Virus record (IMG/VR): IMGVR_UViG_2778261420_000020
Span: 1 to 8,171 of that record
Strand: one strand, 5' to 3'
Length of the DNA: 8,171 bases
Origin: a virus
Taxonomy: Duplodnaviria > Heunggongvirae > Uroviricota > Caudoviricetes
Of this stretch, positions 1 through 8,171 are shown in pieces. The first letter of the stretch is position 1. Every line of letters begins with the position of its first letter. A program made the position numbers and the translations under genes. Below the pieces are notes generated by a model that ran no database searches, was not told where the DNA came from, and worked only from the letters and a program-made list of their open reading frames with translations.

Positions 1-744
1 TCAGATTCCCTGGTGAGTAAGAATTTTACTTTCTGAACTCCTCTGAGAGTATTGACTTGGAGAAACACCAAAATAACGTCTAAATACATAAGTAAAGTAT
101 GAGACACTGGCATAACCACAGACCTTAGCTACTTTACTAATAGGATAACAACGAGTGCTGAGTAAATATTCAGCCATTTGCATCCTCTCATCAAGTATGA
201 TCTTACTGAATGATATCCCCTCTTCTTTCAATTTCCTCTTTAGTAAACTTTCGCTGAGATATAATCTTGATGATATATCCTTAAGACGCCATGGTGCAGA
301 TAAATCCGTATGAATAATCGTTTTAACTTTAGCCCCTGTGCTTTTCAAACATCCAAACAGAAATACTCCAAATTGTTTTTCAGAAGAAAATGCAGAGAGA
401 CATGTAAAAGCAATAGACTCATCAAAAATTTCTATGTATTCAGCACAGTGATTAGCCCAACTAATTAATCCTTTAATTAAACTGAAGTCAGCAAAGTTTA
501 TTTTTAAATAAGATGGATATTCCCTACAATCAGAAATATCCCTTAAGTTATTAGCTTTCAAATAGCGACTAATAAACTCAGCGCCAAAATCCGCCACTAT
601 CACTCTTTCAGGATATGTCAGAAAAAAATCTCTAGAGCTAGAGTCGACAAGTACAGATGAACCTCTCTCCAGAAACACACTCTCTTTTCCGAAATAAACA
701 TCAAAGGACTCCAAAATCAATATAACTGAACATGTGGTTGCCAT
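1..744 (-). CDS. AraC/XylS-family transcriptional regulator (complete, 247 aa; stop codon is the first three bases of the window)
   Basis: The C-terminal ~100 aa carry the two helix-turn-helix units typical of AraC/XylS regulators (e.g. ...SRLYLSESLLKRKLKEEGISFSKIILDERMQMAEYLL... and ...ISKVAKVCGYASVSYFTYVFRRYFGVSPSQY). ATG start at 742..744. The gene is AT-rich and lies outside the tRNA-fragment boundary, so it is flank rather than prophage. Confidence 0.85.
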   Translation of the reverse strand: MATTCSVILILESFDVYFGKESVFLERGSSVLVDSSSRDFFLTYPERVIVADFGAEFISRYLKANNLRDISDCREYPSYLKINFADFSLIKGLISWANHCAEYIEIFDESIAFTCLSAFSSEKQFGVFLFGCLKSTGAKVKTIIHTDLSAPWRLKDISSRLYLSESLLKRKLKEEGISFSKIILDERMQMAEYLLSTRCYPISKVAKVCGYASVSYFTYVFRRYFGVSPSQYSQRSSESKILTHQGI

Positions 745-1328
745 ATCATCCGCCCAATTTAACTGAAACCAGGATGAAGTATATGCATATAAAGTTCACT
801 TTGCCAAACTTCAGTATAAAAAACCACATAAAAAATAGGGTGTGATAAAAAATACCGTAACAATAAAGCAAAGGATTATAAATTCCGTTACAGTTACAAA
901 TGATACTCAAGAAACAATTCCTTAGGAAAAACTTATTTACAGCCAATAAGTAAGACACTTATATGATATCAAGTTTTCATAAAACATAACTAGGCTAAAT
1001 AGCTGCGCCTAATACCGCTACACTTTTGCCAGCCCATGTTTGCCTCCGGGTATTGACCCCTTCTCTACGCAACTTCAGTTCCCACCACCAACTTTGCGGC
1101 AGCTTTGTAGGATAAATGTCTAAAAGAATAATGGTAACCGATAAGAAAACGACTGAATAACTGCAGATTTTCGCTCAAAACCTTCCTGTCAGATCCATAG
1201 CGAATCAAGTGCTGAATGTCACAGTATCGAACAGAAAACAGTGACGATCTAACCCTTCAAGAATATTCTACGATTGTTCTGTTTAGGAAAAGCAAGGCGG
1301 GAAGTCGGGAGATAAGTCATTGATAAAG

Positions 1329-1394
1329 TGGCGGAGAGAGGGGGATTTGAACCCCCGGTAGAGTTGCCCCTACTCCGGTTTTCGAGACCGGTCC
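1329..1394 (-). other. Partial tRNA-Ser(CGA) 3' segment (anticodon stem to CCA end), a putative prophage attachment-site repeat; not a functional tRNA
   Basis: The reverse complement reads GACCGGTCTCGAAAACCGGAGTAGGGGCAACTCTACCGGGGGTTCAAATCCCCCTCTCTCCGCCA: anticodon loop with CGA, long variable arm, T-arm GGGGGTTCAAATCCCCC, acceptor 3' strand and CCA. It matches enterobacterial serU as I recall it. The acceptor 5' strand (GGAGAGA...) and D-arm are absent upstream, so this is only the 3' part. Confidence 0.7.
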
Positions 1395-1474
1395 AATCAT
1401 CAAACGAAACATAAAATTAATTCACATTATGAGGAAAAGTATCTTTTTTGTACTATGTAAATTCAAAGACTTAG

Positions 1475-2344
<870 letters not shown>

Positions 2345-2404: not shown

Positions 2405-2815
2405 TCATTTATCTCCGACCGGAAACTTCTTATACAGTGTCGATATACCAACATCATAGATGATCGCCACCTTCTGGCGAGGAACGCCTGATGCAATTAA
2501 TCGTCCGGCCTGCTCCCATTGTTCTGGTGTAAGTTTGGGGCGACGTCCACCAATTCATCCCTGTGCGCGAGCTGCTTCCAGTCCAGCTTTTGTTCGTTCA
2601 ACAATCAGTTCACGCTCCATTTCAGCCAGGGCACCCATCACATGAAAAAAAAAGCGCCCCATTGGGGTACTGGTATCAATTGAATCCGTCAGACTACGAA
2701 AGTTGATGCCTCGTTCGCGCAACTCCTCCACCAGCACGACAAGATGCCACATACTGCGTCCCAGTCGGTCCAGTTTCCAGACCACCAGCGTGTCACCTGC
2801 CGATAATGTCCTATT
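2405..2815 (-). pseudogene. Serine DNA invertase remnant (Pin/Gin/Hin/Cin family): N-terminal ~47 codons missing, including the catalytic-serine region, plus an in-frame TGA at 2555..2557
   Basis: The translation RTLSAGDTLVVWKLDRLGRSM...GINFRSLTDSIDTSTPMGRFFFHVMGALAEMERELIVERTKAGLEAARAQG, then a stop, then IGGRRPKLTPEQWEQAGRLIASGVPRQKVAIIYDVGISTLYKKFPVGDK, is the recognisable Din-family invertase core and C-terminal HTH. The expected N-terminus (...GYVRVSTxxQ...) is not found in any frame. The TGA sits where these invertases have Arg (QGRIGG). Confidence 0.85.
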
Positions 2816-2872
2816 GAAATCAGTGTTAACCTCTACAACCAATTTGCTGGTATTGCCTGGCCTGAAGGTAAA

Positions 2873-3163
2873 ATGCTTGGTGCAGATAGCACTGGACTGC
2901 CCGCTTGGGTCGATGCGCCGCCTCCAACGCATGAAGAGCTTATTGAAATTACTCAATCAGAAAGACAGCTACTAATTAACCAGGCCAACGAATACATGAA
3001 CAGTAAACAATGGCCCGGTAAAGCCGCTATTGGTCGTCTGAAAGGTGACGAACTGGCGCAATATAATTTGTGGCTGGATTATCTGGACGCACTGGAACTG
3101 GTTGATACTTCCGGTGCGCCAGATATTGAATGGCCTACGCCTCCGGCAGTTCAGGCCAGATGA
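2873..3163 (+). pseudogene. Tail-fibre assembly protein, alternative copy (Tfa'/U'-like), 5'-truncated remnant; C-terminal ~96 codons (frame is open back to 2807)
   Basis: The C-terminus ...LWLDYLDALELVDTSGAPDIEWPTPPA matches the conserved Tfa C-terminal motif also present in the intact minus-strand tfa (...ALDYIDALTATDTSTAPDVIWPELPEA). It converges on and overlaps tfa by 29 nt. The remnant is too short to be a full Tfa and abuts the truncated invertase. Confidence 0.6.
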
Positions 3164-3737
3164 CATCCGGCGCGGTGCTGGTATCTGTTGCCGTCAACGC
3201 GTCAATATAATCCAGCGCAACGTTAAGCCGGGTGGTTTCTGCCTGCGTCAGCTTCCGCCCGGCCTGCAATTTCAACTGAATCAGACTAATGGAAACCATT
3301 GCAGCATCAATCAGTGACTGACGCTGTGCTTCTGCCGCGTCTACTGCGGCGCTATGCTGTGCCTCGGTATCTGTCACCCATTTCTCACCATCCCATTTAT
3401 CGTATGGAGATAAAGGGGCGATAGTGGTTGTATTTTCAGGGTAATCACCCGGAGCTGTGATTTCTTTTGATTCTCCTGTTTCAGTGCTATAGACCGTTTC
3501 ACCACGATGGTCTGGCACATATCCCCATGAGTTAAAATCTACAGAACGGCAGATAACATAACCCTCCCTATGTATACCAGGTGCATCCAGGCAGGAATAT
3601 GCCGGGATACCAACACCAACGGCAAGATATTCACTTGAAGTGGAAATATATTCCCGAGTTTCACCATCATAGTTATAAACAGTAATATCCCCTGCCTTCG
3701 TAGCAATAAACTCGCTATTTAATACAGCGTTATCCAT
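3135..3737 (-). CDS. Tail-fibre assembly protein (Tfa / Mu U-like)
   Basis: 200 aa with the conserved C-terminal motif (...LNVALDYIDALTATDTSTAPDVIWP...). It lies immediately downstream of the tail-fibre gene, and its start codon overlaps the fibre stop codon (TAATG). Confidence 0.85.
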   Translation of the reverse strand: MDNAVLNSEFIATKAGDITVYNYDGETREYISTSSEYLAVGVGIPAYSCLDAPGIHREGYVICRSVDFNSWGYVPDHRGETVYSTETGESKEITAPGDYPENTTTIAPLSPYDKWDGEKWVTDTEAQHSAAVDAAEAQRQSLIDAAMVSISLIQLKLQAGRKLTQAETTRLNVALDYIDALTATDTSTAPDVIWPELPEA

Positions 3738-4507
3738 TATGCAGCCCTCACAATGTAGTTAAATGCAACGTTCACCGGGCGAGTTTCATTGGCGGTATTT
3801 GCCACCCTTGACATATCGAAATCAAATGTTGTGACACCATGCCCTCCACTACCTACGCCTGTAACCGCTGTTAATCCAGTAGTCAGATAGTTATTACCGT
3901 TATGACGAAATGGACCATTGGTAACTAAATCTTTAAAAAGCTGAATTTTCCCTATTGAACCAGTGACGTTTTGCATTGCATGCTCCTGTGAAGCCAATAG
4001 AATCCTTCCGGGGTCAATGCCTCTCCCGTCATCCCAGCCACGAATAAACTCACCGCGTAAATCAGGCAATTTATTTGTCGGGTAAGCCTTTGCCAGTTCC
4101 GGGTATTCTTCAGCAGAAAATGCCGCACCGTTGCATTTCAGCCAGCCTGTTGGCGGAGTGGCGGAAGGCCACGGAACAGGCACACCAACGGGTAATGCCG
4201 AACCTTCTCCCAAACCAAGGTTTTCGAGAGCCGTTTTCACCGTGCCATCCGATTTGATATCGCCAAACGGATTCTTGCGGCTTAACAGCAGCGCATGAAG
4301 CGCGGTAAGCAACTGGTCGTTTCGCCCCTTCTCCAGGCTGGCACCGGATGCCTCCACCACGCCACAAAGCTCTTCCTGCAACATGTCAAAGTAGTCATCA
4401 TCAAGATCGGTGGCAGGCGTGCCAGTCTGGGGGTTACCACGGGTAAAACCGTTCTTACCCGCGCCGAACTTATCCTTCTGCGCGGTTTTCGTGTCTATGC
4501 GATGCAT
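3737..4507 (-). CDS. Tail-fibre protein (short side tail fibre with a phage tail-collar domain)
   Basis: A tail-collar-like motif block is present (...[45 protein letters not shown]...). The N-terminal region is typical of inversion-type fibre genes and contains a crossover-like site. Gene order is baseplate, then fibre, then tfa. Confidence 0.85.
4205..4230. other. Candidate invertase crossover site (hix/gix/pix-like 26-bp site) embedded in the tail-fibre coding sequence
   Basis: TTCTCCCAAACCAAGGTTTTCGAGAG contains the conserved AAACC-NN-GGTTT core of Din-family crossover sites (about 20/26 identical to hixL as I remember it). It encodes LENLGLGE at residues 94-101 of the fibre, the expected constant/variable junction. 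Confidence 0.5.
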
Positions 4508-4510
4508 GGA

Positions 4511-5095
4511 TTACTCCGGATATTTAAAAATTACGTAGGTATGCGACGGGCAGAGTTTGTTAAGCACACACTCGACAACGGTGTCACCCCAGATACGCAG
4601 TGCGGAATCACAGGGATCGCCACATGTCATCCAGGTGGTGTTGGTGGCGGCTGGCATGTTGACCTGCCAGTAATACCGCCATTCCGGCGCATTCACCGCG
4701 TCAGTACAGGCCGATGAGCAGGTGAAGGTGCTTTTATCGTATCGCGTGATGGTGGCGTCTTGTCTGCCCAGGGCAGCAAGCTGTGCAAGGTAAAAATCCT
4801 CATTGATGCCGCCCGCCAGGTTAACCTTCGCATCCAGCCGTTGCTGACGCTGGCGAAGGGTCTGCGTTCCCGCAGGAATGCATTCATCCGGCAGGCCGCA
4901 CAGACGCTCCCAGCGGTTTATCAGTTCGGTGGTGGTGCGCGGATCCAGCTCCCGCATCAGGGCATCCGCACGCTGATGAACGCGGGTTAATGACGGTGCC
5001 GCACCGGCAATCGCCGGATCGCTGGCTGACCACGCCGGACCGGGCGGCAACAGTGCCGATAACAGGCGGATGTAATCATCGTTTGTCACGTCCAT
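4511..5095 (-). CDS. Phage tail protein, Mu gp48-like / DUF2313 (YmfQ-like)
   Basis: 194 aa with the N-terminal motif ...[12 protein letters not shown]... characteristic of this family as I recall it. It sits between the baseplate-J-like gene and the tail fibre and overlaps the upstream gene by 10 nt. Confidence 0.75.
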
Positions 5096-6144
5096 GAAAT
5101 CGTCCCCAGTACCGCCAGTTCATTTTTTGCAATGGAGATATTGTCTGCCGGTGCAAGCAACTGATGGCTGTATTCCCCGTTCGCACCGGAAATCGCCTCA
5201 CTGATACGCGATACCTTCAGTTCTCCCTGCGGATAACCATCACGCAGCAGGAACGAACGCAACTCCGCGGTGATGGCAGCCCGTATTTCCGGTGTGTCCG
5301 GCGTCACGCGAATATGAAAATCCACCGTATGTGCCACCGGCCTGAACACATACAAATCAGAGCCTGCCACCGGGGCCAGTGGCCCGATATGTTGTCTTGC
5401 CGCCGTTTCCGTTGATTCTTCCGGAATGGGATTAATCAGGTCACTGCTGGCAATCATCACACCAACAGTTCCCGTTCCCATCCAGTGACGGTATGTCCAT
5501 GCGCGGGTAATGCCGGGCACTTCTTTAGCCCAGACGACATAGTCCCCGTCAGCCCCGCCCTGAGGCGTCCAGTAATAGCGCTCAATGACACGGGCGCGCC
5601 ACGTTTCCAGATCTTCAGTATCAAATCCGCCTGTCAGGGTATCTGCCACACCGGACGACGGCAGACCATTCACCGGCGTGACCAGGATTAATGCCGTACC
5701 GTCGTCAGCGTTACCGACCGCGCCTGCAGTTGAGCAGGCGATCGGCACGCGCAGGACTCCACCGGAGCTGGTTGCATCGGCAGTTGCCGTGTACTGAACC
5801 AGGTCATCGCGCTGAATAACACTCCCGGCGGTCACCTTCAGGCCATCGCTGACGCCTTCCCAGCGCATATACCCGCTGGCAGCTGTGGCACCCTTGCGCG
5901 GACACCGTTTCATCGCAGCATGTCGCGCCAGCCAGGACTCATCGCACAGGTCAGGCAGCATGTTCATTGCCAGATAATCGATGTAACCGTAAACCGTATG
6001 CAGCGCCGCCGCATACACCTTTGCCCGCACGTCTTCATCCATGCGCCGGAGCGTGTCGCTGACGTCCAGCCTGGCGAATAAATCGTTACGGAGCATACTG
6101 ATATTTTCTGCCAGCGTCGGGCGCTGAAATTCACTGTCCGCCAT
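5086..6144 (-). CDS. Baseplate J-like protein (Mu gp47-like)
   Basis: 352 aa; size and position (after the gp46-like gene, before the gp48-like gene) match the Mu-type baseplate order. High-GC coding region with overlapping start and stop codons with its neighbours. Confidence 0.8.
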
Positions 6145-6559
6145 GCGTTATCGCACTCCACAGATCATCAAAAGAAATCATTACCGGTCCGTCACGACGC
6201 CAGAGGGTGATACTGTTACCCAGTTCATTAATCCCGGTGCGGCGGATATCCAGATCAATACGGGACACCACGCCGTCATCAATCATCCATTGCAGGCATT
6301 CGCGGATATACCCCCTTACCGTCAGCACCAGCTGATTGGTCAGTTTGCTGCGCTGAAGCAGCCACAGTCGGGAGCCGTAACGGTCATTCTGTACCGCAGG
6401 CCAGGTATCCCCCCACCATCCCATCGGGACGTCGGCGTTGTCATCAGGCTCCGCCCGCCGCCAGGTGAACAGGGAAATCACCACGGCGCGGGTCAGCGGG
6501 TCCAGCGGTGCGCTGGCACTGGTGCGTTTGCCGTTCACCGTCAGCCACAGTTCCATCAT
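6131..6559 (-). CDS. Phage GP46-family baseplate protein (Mu gp46-like)
   Basis: 142 aa; size and position between the gpV-like and J-like genes. 4-nt overlap with the upstream gene and 14-nt overlap with the downstream gene. Confidence 0.75.
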   Translation of the reverse strand: MMELWLTVNGKRTSASAPLDPLTRAVVISLFTWRRAEPDDNADVPMGWWGDTWPAVQNDRYGSRLWLLQRSKLTNQLVLTVRGYIRECLQWMIDDGVVSRIDLDIRRTGINELGNSITLWRRDGPVMISFDDLWSAITHGGQ

Positions 6560-7104
6560 GCCTCCATCGCTTTATCAGGTTTGTCGGTGTTACTGCCCTG
6601 ACCGTTCTCTCTGTGACGATGCCCGTTATAGGCAAGCCGCATCGCTGACATGGTGGTACCGCCGGAGTCGCACAGGTCTTTCACCTGTCCGGTCACTTCC
6701 AGGTCCATTTCAAAACGTGCTCTGGGCGCATTGCGAAACGTGATCGTTTTACCTGCACCGTCCACCACGATCCCCTCCCGGGTCAGCGTCACAGACTGCC
6801 CCTGATCGTCATAGACAGCCACCTCACCCGTCTGCAGCCCTTTCAGGCGGTAGCGCCGGTCCGACACCGTAACAACCACCGCATGAGAACGGTCGCCATC
6901 CGGAAACAACACCACCGCTTCCGCACCGCTGTTTGCCCTTGCGGTAAAACCGTAGGGTTCAAGATGTTCAACCCCGGCTTTGGGTTCACCGGCAATCAGG
7001 GACACATCCACGGTCTGACATTTCGTGGCGGCACTGATGCTTTTCACCACTGCCCGCCCAATCAGGCCGAGAAGTTGTCGCTGCATGGCTTCAATCGTCC
7101 TCAT
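6556..7104 (-). CDS. Baseplate assembly protein V / spike (Mu gp45-like)
   Basis: 182 aa; N-terminus MRTIEAMQRQLLGLIGRAVV... and size are typical of gpV-like baseplate spike proteins. Start codon overlaps the stop of the upstream hub-like gene. Confidence 0.8.
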   Translation of the reverse strand: MRTIEAMQRQLLGLIGRAVVKSISAATKCQTVDVSLIAGEPKAGVEHLEPYGFTARANSGAEAVVLFPDGDRSHAVVVTVSDRRYRLKGLQTGEVAVYDDQGQSVTLTREGIVVDGAGKTITFRNAPRARFEMDLEVTGQVKDLCDSGGTTMSAMRLAYNGHRHRENGQGSNTDKPDKAMEA

Positions 7105-8171
7105 CAGAACGGGTCCTCCTGTACTCTGGCTTTTTTCTTTTTCCGCGCGCCGGGGGCTTCGGGTTCAGGCAGATAAGCATCAGGTGGGCCGACACGGATT
7201 TCCGTCAGGGTGCCGTTCTGGTCCTGAGTAAACGTGACTTCCGAGACAAGCAGTTCGGTATTGTCGAAACCACAGACCGGATCAAAGACAATCACCCGCT
7301 GGTTGGGCTGCCACAGCGTACCGTTACCCTGTCGCCAGCCCTGCACCACATAGGTGGTTTCATCCGTCCGCGCCGCCCGTTGTCGGGCTTCAAAGTCAGC
7401 ACGCGCAATACAACCTGCCCCCGTGGCCTGCCCTGTCTGCCTGATATACATCGGACGGTAACGGGCAATAAATGCGTCCTCTGTGCGGGCCCGCAGCGCG
7501 GTGGTGGTGGCCTCACCGAAATCATCGTCGTTTCCGGCACGCTGCCCCGCCACCTGGTAAACTGAAAACCGCTCCCGGATACTCTTCTCCGTATCACAGG
7601 AAAGGATGTTTTCCCCGAGTACCAGCGCGGTATGTGCCCGCGTTGAGCCAATACCGCCAATCACCAGCCTGCCGTGCGGGTCGTCGTAAGCCAGCGCCTG
7701 CTGCTGACCGAGTATTTTGTTGATTACCTCAATCACCGTTTCACCGTGATCAGGCTGAACATCAGGAATAACACCCGACGGCGCACCGCTGTTCACCACC
7801 TCAATGCCGAAAGGCGCAGCAAGCGCCTGCGCAATCTGCACCAGCGAGCGTCCGTTAAACTGTGTCGGTTCGGCTGCACAGTCAATCAGGTCAGCGGTCA
7901 GACTACGTCCGGCAATACCGGTGCTGACCGAACGGGCATCGTAACGAACGGGAGTCGCCTCCACCCAGCCGGTGATCACCAGCTCATCACCAATCAGCAC
8001 CTCCACTTTTGAACCGTTTTTAATGCGCGGCTGAAGCGTGGTGATACCCTCATCTCCCGGCCACTGGCGAGTGATCTCCACACTGAAATCCCGCGCCAGC
8101 CGTTCAATACCGGCACCGATGCGCACCGATGTCCAGCCATTCCACTCCCGGCCATTTACCCGTAGCGTGAC
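7104..8171 (-). CDS. Baseplate hub / late control D-like protein (Mu gp44-like); 5'-partial, reading frame open to the window edge
   Basis: The frame has no stop between 8126 and the window end (upstream residues VTLRVNGREWNGWTS...). The 'M' in the ORF track at 8124..8126 is an internal GTG. Position directly upstream of the gpV-like gene and size >355 aa fit a gpD/gp44-type hub. Lys-rich C-terminus. Confidence 0.7.
   Translation of the reverse strand, partial: VTLRVNGREWNGWTSVRIGAGIERLARDFSVEITRQWPGDEGITTLQPRIKNGSKVEVLIGDELVITGWVEATPVRYDARSVSTGIAGRSLTADLIDCAAEPTQFNGRSLVQIAQALAAPFGIEVVNSGAPSGVIPDVQPDHGETVIEVINKILGQQQALAYDDPHGRLVIGGIGSTRAHTALVLGENILSCDTEKSIRERFSVYQVAGQRAGNDDDFGEATTTALRARTEDAFIARYRPMYIRQTGQATGAGCIARADFEARQRAARTDETTYVVQGWRQGNGTLWQPNQRVIVFDPVCGFDNTELLVSEVTFTQDQNGTLTEIRVGPPDAYLPEPEAPGARKKKKARVQEDPF

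Follow-up and report, generated by a model that had tools for sequence, protein, structure and literature searches.

Does the serine tRNA fragment at positions 1329-1394 mark the place where a prophage ends and the bacterial chromosome begins? The original prediction, made on the 8171-nt stretch of viral DNA analysed here (hereafter the window), was that it does, and that an intact tRNA-Ser and an integrase would lie at the other end of the element. Our analysis assigns the fragment a different place in the history of this prophage. We consider it probable, at roughly 85%, that positions 1051-1570 form a fossil attR-type junction, nested inside a prophage that is bounded by thrW and left there after the capture of host DNA. 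The features of the window are collected in Table 1.

Table 1. Features of the window, with coordinates in window positions.
Feature	Position	Strand	Remarks
AraC-family regulator gene, 247 aa	1-744	minus	Pfam HTH_AraC and HTH_18; cargo of the module
Upstream region of the AraC gene, 250 bp	745-994	minus	Single sigma-70-like site at 807-778, weak
ISEc33 end (IS630 family)	995-1050	plus	Terminal 56 nt, internally cut at 1050/1051
B' arm	1051-1328	minus	278 bp of native yodB-serU spacer, downstream of serU
O segment	1329-1394	minus	3' 66 nt of serU tRNA-Ser(CGA), linear positions 25-90 including CCA
P arm of a former serU attP (ST64B type)	1395-1570	plus	Leads into the GIY-YIG gene
LEM-3-like GIY-YIG domain gene	1571-2344	plus	Pfam PF22945; first gene of the P arm
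pin-type serine invertase pseudogene	2403-2812	minus	Resolvase domain
Tail-fibre assembly, tail-fibre and Mu-type baseplate genes (SfV/ST64B-like)	3135-8126	minus	Pfam and gene calls

The identity of the fragment was as predicted. Both megablast and a direct alignment gave 66 of 66 identical positions between window 1329-1394 and nucleotides 25-90 of the 90-nt E. coli serU gene, which encodes tRNA-Ser(CGA). The O segment starts two bases before the anticodon stem and covers the anticodon stem-loop, the long variable arm, the T arm, the 3' acceptor strand and CCA. Read on the minus strand it runs GGACCGGTCTCGAAAACCGGAG...CTCTCTCCGCCA; as had been claimed, the 5' side (1394) points to the phage genes, and the CCA end is at 1329. 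The 22-mer of the anticodon stem-loop occurs once in the window, against none expected from 200 shuffles. A megablast search with the 66-mer matched 5422 of 5426 complete E. coli genomes, with full-length matches at 100% identity to annotated tRNA-Ser genes, K-12 included. A second copy of the segment, as expected from the original prediction, is thus present in nearly every E. coli genome, but this copy is the ordinary serU gene between yodB and mtfA and not the far end of a prophage.

An intact tRNA at this position would have contradicted the original prediction; there is none, and the fragment is without any tRNA role. An intact or cryptic tRNA at 1329-1394 was rejected on three observations: ARAGORN found no tRNA in the window, the Rfam scan returned no tRNA match at the fragment, and the 5' part of the gene is missing, its 24 nt not being found in the window at up to three mismatches. 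The 5' acceptor strand and D arm of a full cloverleaf are replaced by a phage arm to the right of 1394. Two Rfam matches overlie the same bases, one to the T arm of tmRNA and one to RF04351 ('Plastid-psbl-rps4 3'UTR') at 1332-1383 on the antisense strand of the fragment (40.9 bits against a gathering score of 68). We rejected both as true family members, and they are best read as tRNA-like side effects. That RF04351 matches the antisense strand of a bacterial tRNA-Ser suggests that the model overlaps a plastid tRNA gene, and makes it a source of misleading matches. In a related IMG/VR locus (UViG_2537561945_000005, L026), an insertion of about 1.3 kb splits the serU fragment at the equivalent of window 1342-1349. 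These positions are present on both sides of the insertion as an 8-bp duplication, which looks like the insertion of an IS element into the scar.

Beyond the fragment, the homologies on its two sides define the type of junction. We interpret 1051-1570 as a true P-O-B' (attR-type) junction made at serU by an ST64B-type integrase, because it combines a serU block, the native serU spacer and a P arm like those of ST64B and E-ge-1. The block itself is the tRNA 3' portion from the anticodon stem to the 3' end (serU 25-90). On its CCA side it is contiguous with 278 bp of the sequence that naturally lies downstream of serU, at 97-99% identity to the yodB-serU spacer. In K-12, the native order is yodB, a spacer of about 570 bp, serU and mtfA; window 1051-1394 is 97.1% identical to this locus (L005 3723-4066), and other native loci reach 98.8%. 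On the other side, the sequence to the right of 1394 starts AATCATCAAACGAAAC... and is homologous to the arm of the ST64B attP, which adjoins an integrase, and to that of a native serU attR in E. coli strain E-ge-1. The signature of an attachment junction that the original prediction had recognized therefore stands as far as an attR-type scar of serU insertion is concerned. What it could not include is that homology to the native serU locus runs on for 278 bp past the fragment (1051-1328).

The comparison with ST64B, an SfV-like phage of Salmonella that we take to integrate at serU, as the tRNA-Ser-like block adjoining its integrase also suggests, extends to gene order. The ST64B attP, which adjoins the integrase gene sb28, is 72% identical to the matched segment of window 1329-1502. 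As in the window, a tRNA-Ser-like block is followed by the P arm, there beside int, and the order of core, P arm, pin remnant, tail-fibre assembly gene, tail-fibre gene and Mu-type baseplate genes is the same. Unlike an attR of the ST64B type, the window junction has neither an attL nor a serU-type integrase as its counterpart, is nested within a thrW-bounded element, and retains a host flank of only 278 bp. In E-ge-1, this arrangement stands at the chromosomal serU locus itself: yodB is followed by the spacer and then by the serU fragment and P arm as in the window, with 94.6% identity over window 1051-1573 and 90.8% identity between the two P arms. Beyond the P arm come a decayed prophage, an integrase 83% identical to ST64B Int and an intact serU beside mtfA. 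Several other elements are found at serU, a much-used site for integration: Sp14 of O157 Sakai is reported there (PMC8190617), O55:H7 carries an EspJ-encoding lambdoid prophage at serU with a P arm different from that of the window, and in another genome a serU element duplicates the last 14 nt of the tRNA only.

On the left, the native sequence stops abruptly. Homology to the serU locus ends exactly at 1051, and the adjoining 995-1050 matches the end of an intact ISEc33 on plasmid pYS1718-1 at 53 of 56 positions (L016 2505-2560). The outer end of this ISEc33 remnant faces the AraC gene, whereas its interior is severed at 1050. The rest of the serU neighbourhood, beyond the 344 bp of 1051-1394, was absent from the related loci compared. 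By these alignments, 1050/1051 is an illegitimate (non-homologous) joint, and 1051-1328 is host DNA from downstream of serU. An inversion or recombination between serU and thrW prophages was also considered and was rejected: yodB and the remaining flank would be expected at the locus, and only 344 bp are present.

The right-hand side of the junction varies among relatives. Three versions of the P arm were found on an AraC-to-O block that is otherwise 98-99.6% identical, and all three diverge at 1390/1391. The first is that of the window. The second is an allele 91.6% identical to it over 1391-1570, with a GIY-YIG gene beyond at 96-99.7%. The third is the unrelated arm of the lambda-like phage ev099. 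Since the unrelated window-type and ev099-type arms are both found on the same O-B'-AraC block, one or more later exchanges at or near O have to be postulated. One reading of this pattern is that the serU core is a portable working site, either a secondary landing pad or a place of Int-mediated module exchange for serU-specific integrases of the ST64B and Sp14 types. Besides the shared breakpoint of the three arms, the intact core, identical to serU at all 66 positions, speaks for it. Yet the same breakpoints would be expected from ordinary homologous recombination, or from gene conversion, with a prophage resident at serU: because about 1190-1390 is identical between the module and the native serU locus, the breakpoints are equally compatible with Int-mediated and homologous exchange. 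Further points against a working site are that no prophage was found nested at the O of the module, and that the fragments of O157 and LR882050 each carry two T-loop substitutions, as neutral decay in a sequence free of tRNA constraint would lead one to expect. We therefore regard a working site as unlikely. If it were true, prophages at thrW or the lambda site could offer serU-type phages a place to insert, or a partner for exchanging the arms next to the tail-fibre genes, and this would help to explain why the AraC (patE-like) block is found on at least two unrelated phage arms.

A shorter variant of the right-hand junction was observed in E. coli ECO21 (L009 ~11995-12022), where the same P arm stands on only about 20 nt of serU, corresponding to the anticodon stem-loop. 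Beyond these 20 nt lie a type II restriction-modification system, an integrase fragment and a vat gene. This junction may be a secondary-site product or may reflect a shorter att core.

Where, then, does the present prophage end? If the fragment were the current attR of a serU prophage, as the original prediction held, the chromosome would start at about 1329 and an intact serU with an integrase would be found at the far end. In its anatomy the junction matches an attR exactly, the predicted arrangement is literally realized in E-ge-1, and the prophages at serU in O157 Sakai and O55:H7 show that the site is in use; against this stands what surrounds the junction in the source. Over its whole length, the window matches the terminal 8171 nt of contig NORX01000037.1 (GCA_002521845.1) at 100% identity. 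Past the 278-bp flank, this contig continues not with yodB but with the truncated ISEc33 end, the phage-borne AraC gene and, leftward from window position 1, an IS3-family fragment, a 46-nt 3' fragment of thrW, a LysR-gene fragment, paoD, paoC, paoB and paoA. Beyond paoA are DUF1440, CxxCxxCC and EcpD-type genes, which correspond to yagU, ykgJ and ecp of I4 and LR882050. The thrW piece spans window coordinates -530 to -485, is oriented like the serU fragment and likewise begins at the anticodon loop. By these neighbours, the border between prophage and chromosome in the source is a thrW attR about 0.5 kb outside the window, which places the serU fragment about 1.8-1.9 kb inside the element.

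The source contig stops at window position 8171, and the evidence for the far end comes from LR882050, the closest complete genome with an intact prophage among those examined. Here, a 56-nt copy of the thrW 3' end and its flank lies between the LysR-gene fragment and the IS3 fragment, to the left of the AraC gene. The prophage extends for about 38 kb to an integrase that directly adjoins an intact tRNA-Thr gene, thrW, and proA. Neither a matching attL with an intact serU nor a serU-type integrase was found at this prophage, and its integrase, with 23% identity to the ST64B integrase over 159 aligned residues, is unrelated to the serU type. The arrangement is that of a thrW prophage of the SfV group, in that the thrW repeat abuts the chromosome in the source, while the intact thrW with the integrase is seen in LR882050 only. 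LR882050, together with the thrW repeat at the near end of the source prophage, leads us to infer that its far end likewise consists of thrW and an integrase. In all genomes with the whole window-type arrangement that were placed in this way (O157:H7, I4, LR882050 and O128:H27), it lies beside thrW, on the side of pao, ykg and ecp, and never at yodB. The predicted element boundary at 1329-1394 and the predicted tRNA-Ser with its integrase at the other end are thus both contradicted, the latter by what relatives show, and a current serU attR has become very improbable, the more so as the same left-hand block is found inside the genomes of lambda-like phages.

The last point rests on phage genome records. 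Window 1-1390 is 98.9-99.2% identical to segments of the records of the lambda-like phages ev099, mEp332 (record host K-12 MG1655) and PhiR70_1. In ev099 and mEp332, the block lies between a tail-fibre-assembly gene on one side and IS fragments, attP, int and xis on the other, and the arm to the right of O, which starts ATGATACAGAG..., is unrelated to that of the window. In ev099, int is about 2.4 kb from the serU junction, beyond the AraC gene and the IS fragments. Prophages with the ev099-type junction are located at the lambda attachment site beside ybhB-bioA. A location within phage genomes, together with the fact that attP sites of tRNA-targeting phages carry a 3' segment of the tRNA, as in ST64B, might suggest that the fragment is simply the attP (P-O-P') of a serU-targeting phage, with phage P' DNA on the AraC side, but we give this next to no credence, since an attP shares the tRNA block alone with the host and here identity extends 278 bp past CCA, since no integrase gene adjoins the block (the ev099 int being as distant as stated), and since the ev099-type prophages occupy the lambda site.

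The block is common in E. coli. Among 5426 complete E. coli genomes, 541 carried the joint between AraC/ISEc33 and B', 437 carried the window-type joint between P and O, and 413 carried both. All inspected contexts among the joint-bearing genomes were either thrW/pao or the lambda site. In IMG/VR, 29 contigs had the exact 1050/1051 joint; a thrW repeat was present in 11 of them, and yodB or mtfA in none. The AraC/ISEc33 block was not seen at the native serU locus in the inspected contexts (a subset of the 541 genomes) or in these 29 IMG/VR loci. When one genome per species (GTDB representatives) was scanned for exact copies of the P-O joint, no match was returned, a result that is uninformative on spread outside E. 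coli.

Our preferred reading remains that the junction is a fossil attR nested in a thrW prophage. The anatomy and homologies of the block, its place in the source contig and its occurrence in phage genome records were read directly; from them we infer both the order of events and aberrant excision as their mechanism. In this proposed history, an ST64B/SfV-like temperate phage with an ST64B-type tyrosine integrase would first have inserted into the block of a chromosomal serU that reaches from the anticodon stem to the 3' end. This would have left the displaced 3' fragment of serU between the P arm, on the side of the GIY-YIG, pin and tail-fibre genes, and the native spacer B'. Illegitimate recombination would then have fused the spacer, at a point 278 bp away from the tRNA, to an internal position of an ISEc33 copy beside a phage-borne AraC gene, an event of the type that yields specialised transducing phages. 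The capture itself may have occurred by aberrant excision or, alternatively, by recombination of a serU-resident prophage with another element. The host DNA and the att scar would in this way have been added to the accessory DNA that separates the tail-fibre genes from attP. Subsequent recombination would have moved the block (IS3 fragment, AraC gene, ISEc33 end, serU flank and serU fragment) into phages with other integrases. Its present carriers are lambda-type phages at the gal-bio site and, at thrW, the SfV-like prophage of the window.

The comparison with lambda bio and gal transducing genomes is informative in both directions. As in those genomes, host DNA in the block is contiguous with an att core inside a phage genome; it is placed between the late genes and the integration module, and an illegitimate joint forms its edge. 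In agreement with aberrant excision, host DNA and att core are present together in the ev099, mEp332 and PhiR70_1 records, with the non-homologous joint inside ISEc33. Unlike the lambda bio/gal type, only 278 bp of non-coding host DNA are retained here, and the int-xis modules of the carriers look functional and are of other specificities, which implies further recombination.

To the right of the junction, the window continues with genes typical of the SfV group. The GIY-YIG gene, conserved as the first of the P arm, adjoins the att core in both SfV-like and lambdoid prophages, and a copy in the lambdoid prophage of ECO21 is 98.8% identical. The pin gene contains an in-frame TGA that changes Arg to a stop (...ARAQG*IGG...), its first ~50 codons are replaced, and its homology to pinE of O157 ends at about 2812. 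As a consequence of this pseudogene, the tail-fibre inversion switch of the prophage is probably frozen. Where the GIY-YIG and pin genes converge, Rfam gave a weak and partial match to CssrB, an sRNA of Shigella, at 2368-2427 on the minus strand (24.5 bits, E 0.099). The terminal hairpin alone was aligned, and the match probably reflects a shared terminator hairpin.

Window 4204-8171 is 97.4-97.5% identical to the Shigella phages SfV, SfII, SfIV and SfI. The segments for the C-terminal part and the assembly of the tail fibre (2813-4200) were 86-93% identical, or were rearranged or in opposite orientation. They form the sole strongly variable part of the window among genomes that are otherwise 97-99% identical, and this variability fits an invertible, shuffled host-range cassette.

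At the left end of the window, the AraC-family gene and its counterpart at this locus in O157:H7 differ at 3 of 744 nt. Judging from its location, it is probably patE (z0321, O-island 8 of O157:H7). In O157, patE is a regulator of acid resistance and of the LEE. PatE is encoded on OI-8 (PMC10877973). A scan of 700-1650 for promoters and terminators gave one promoter-like match, against 2.7 expected from shuffles, and found no terminator in this region.

The compound prophages at thrW in O157 share with the source the chromosomal neighbourhood on the pao-ykg-ecp side of thrW, and their AraC, GIY-YIG, pin and SfV-like tail genes match the window at 97-99%. In the Sakai strain, Sp1 and Sp2 are reported at thrW (PMC8190617). 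What sets O157 apart is a P4-like element, with an integrase of its own, that also occupies the thrW repeat. In O157:H7 (L001 6305-6330 and 19200-19246), this P4-like satellite, with integrase, primase, psu and ogr genes, stands in tandem beside the AraC block. A further partial thrW repeat lies at the far end of the satellite, and the thrW site there is a compound array. The literature that we searched on the O157 thrW prophages held no mention of a nested serU scar.

These results carry a caution for prophage annotation: a tRNA 3' fragment in the correct orientation, even when followed by a genuine host flank, need not mark the present edge of a prophage. A border called at 1329-1394 would drop the AraC gene, probably patE, from the prophage and would have the integrase sought at the wrong tRNA gene. 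The mechanisms that the relic illustrates, aberrant excision and modular exchange, are both known already. As a trace of phage history, it would record that the tail-fibre-proximal arm of this thrW prophage was once part of a serU-integrating, ST64B-like phage. A small piece of host DNA has since spread together with the regulator gene: about 10% of complete E. coli genomes, as well as lambda-like phages, now carry it.
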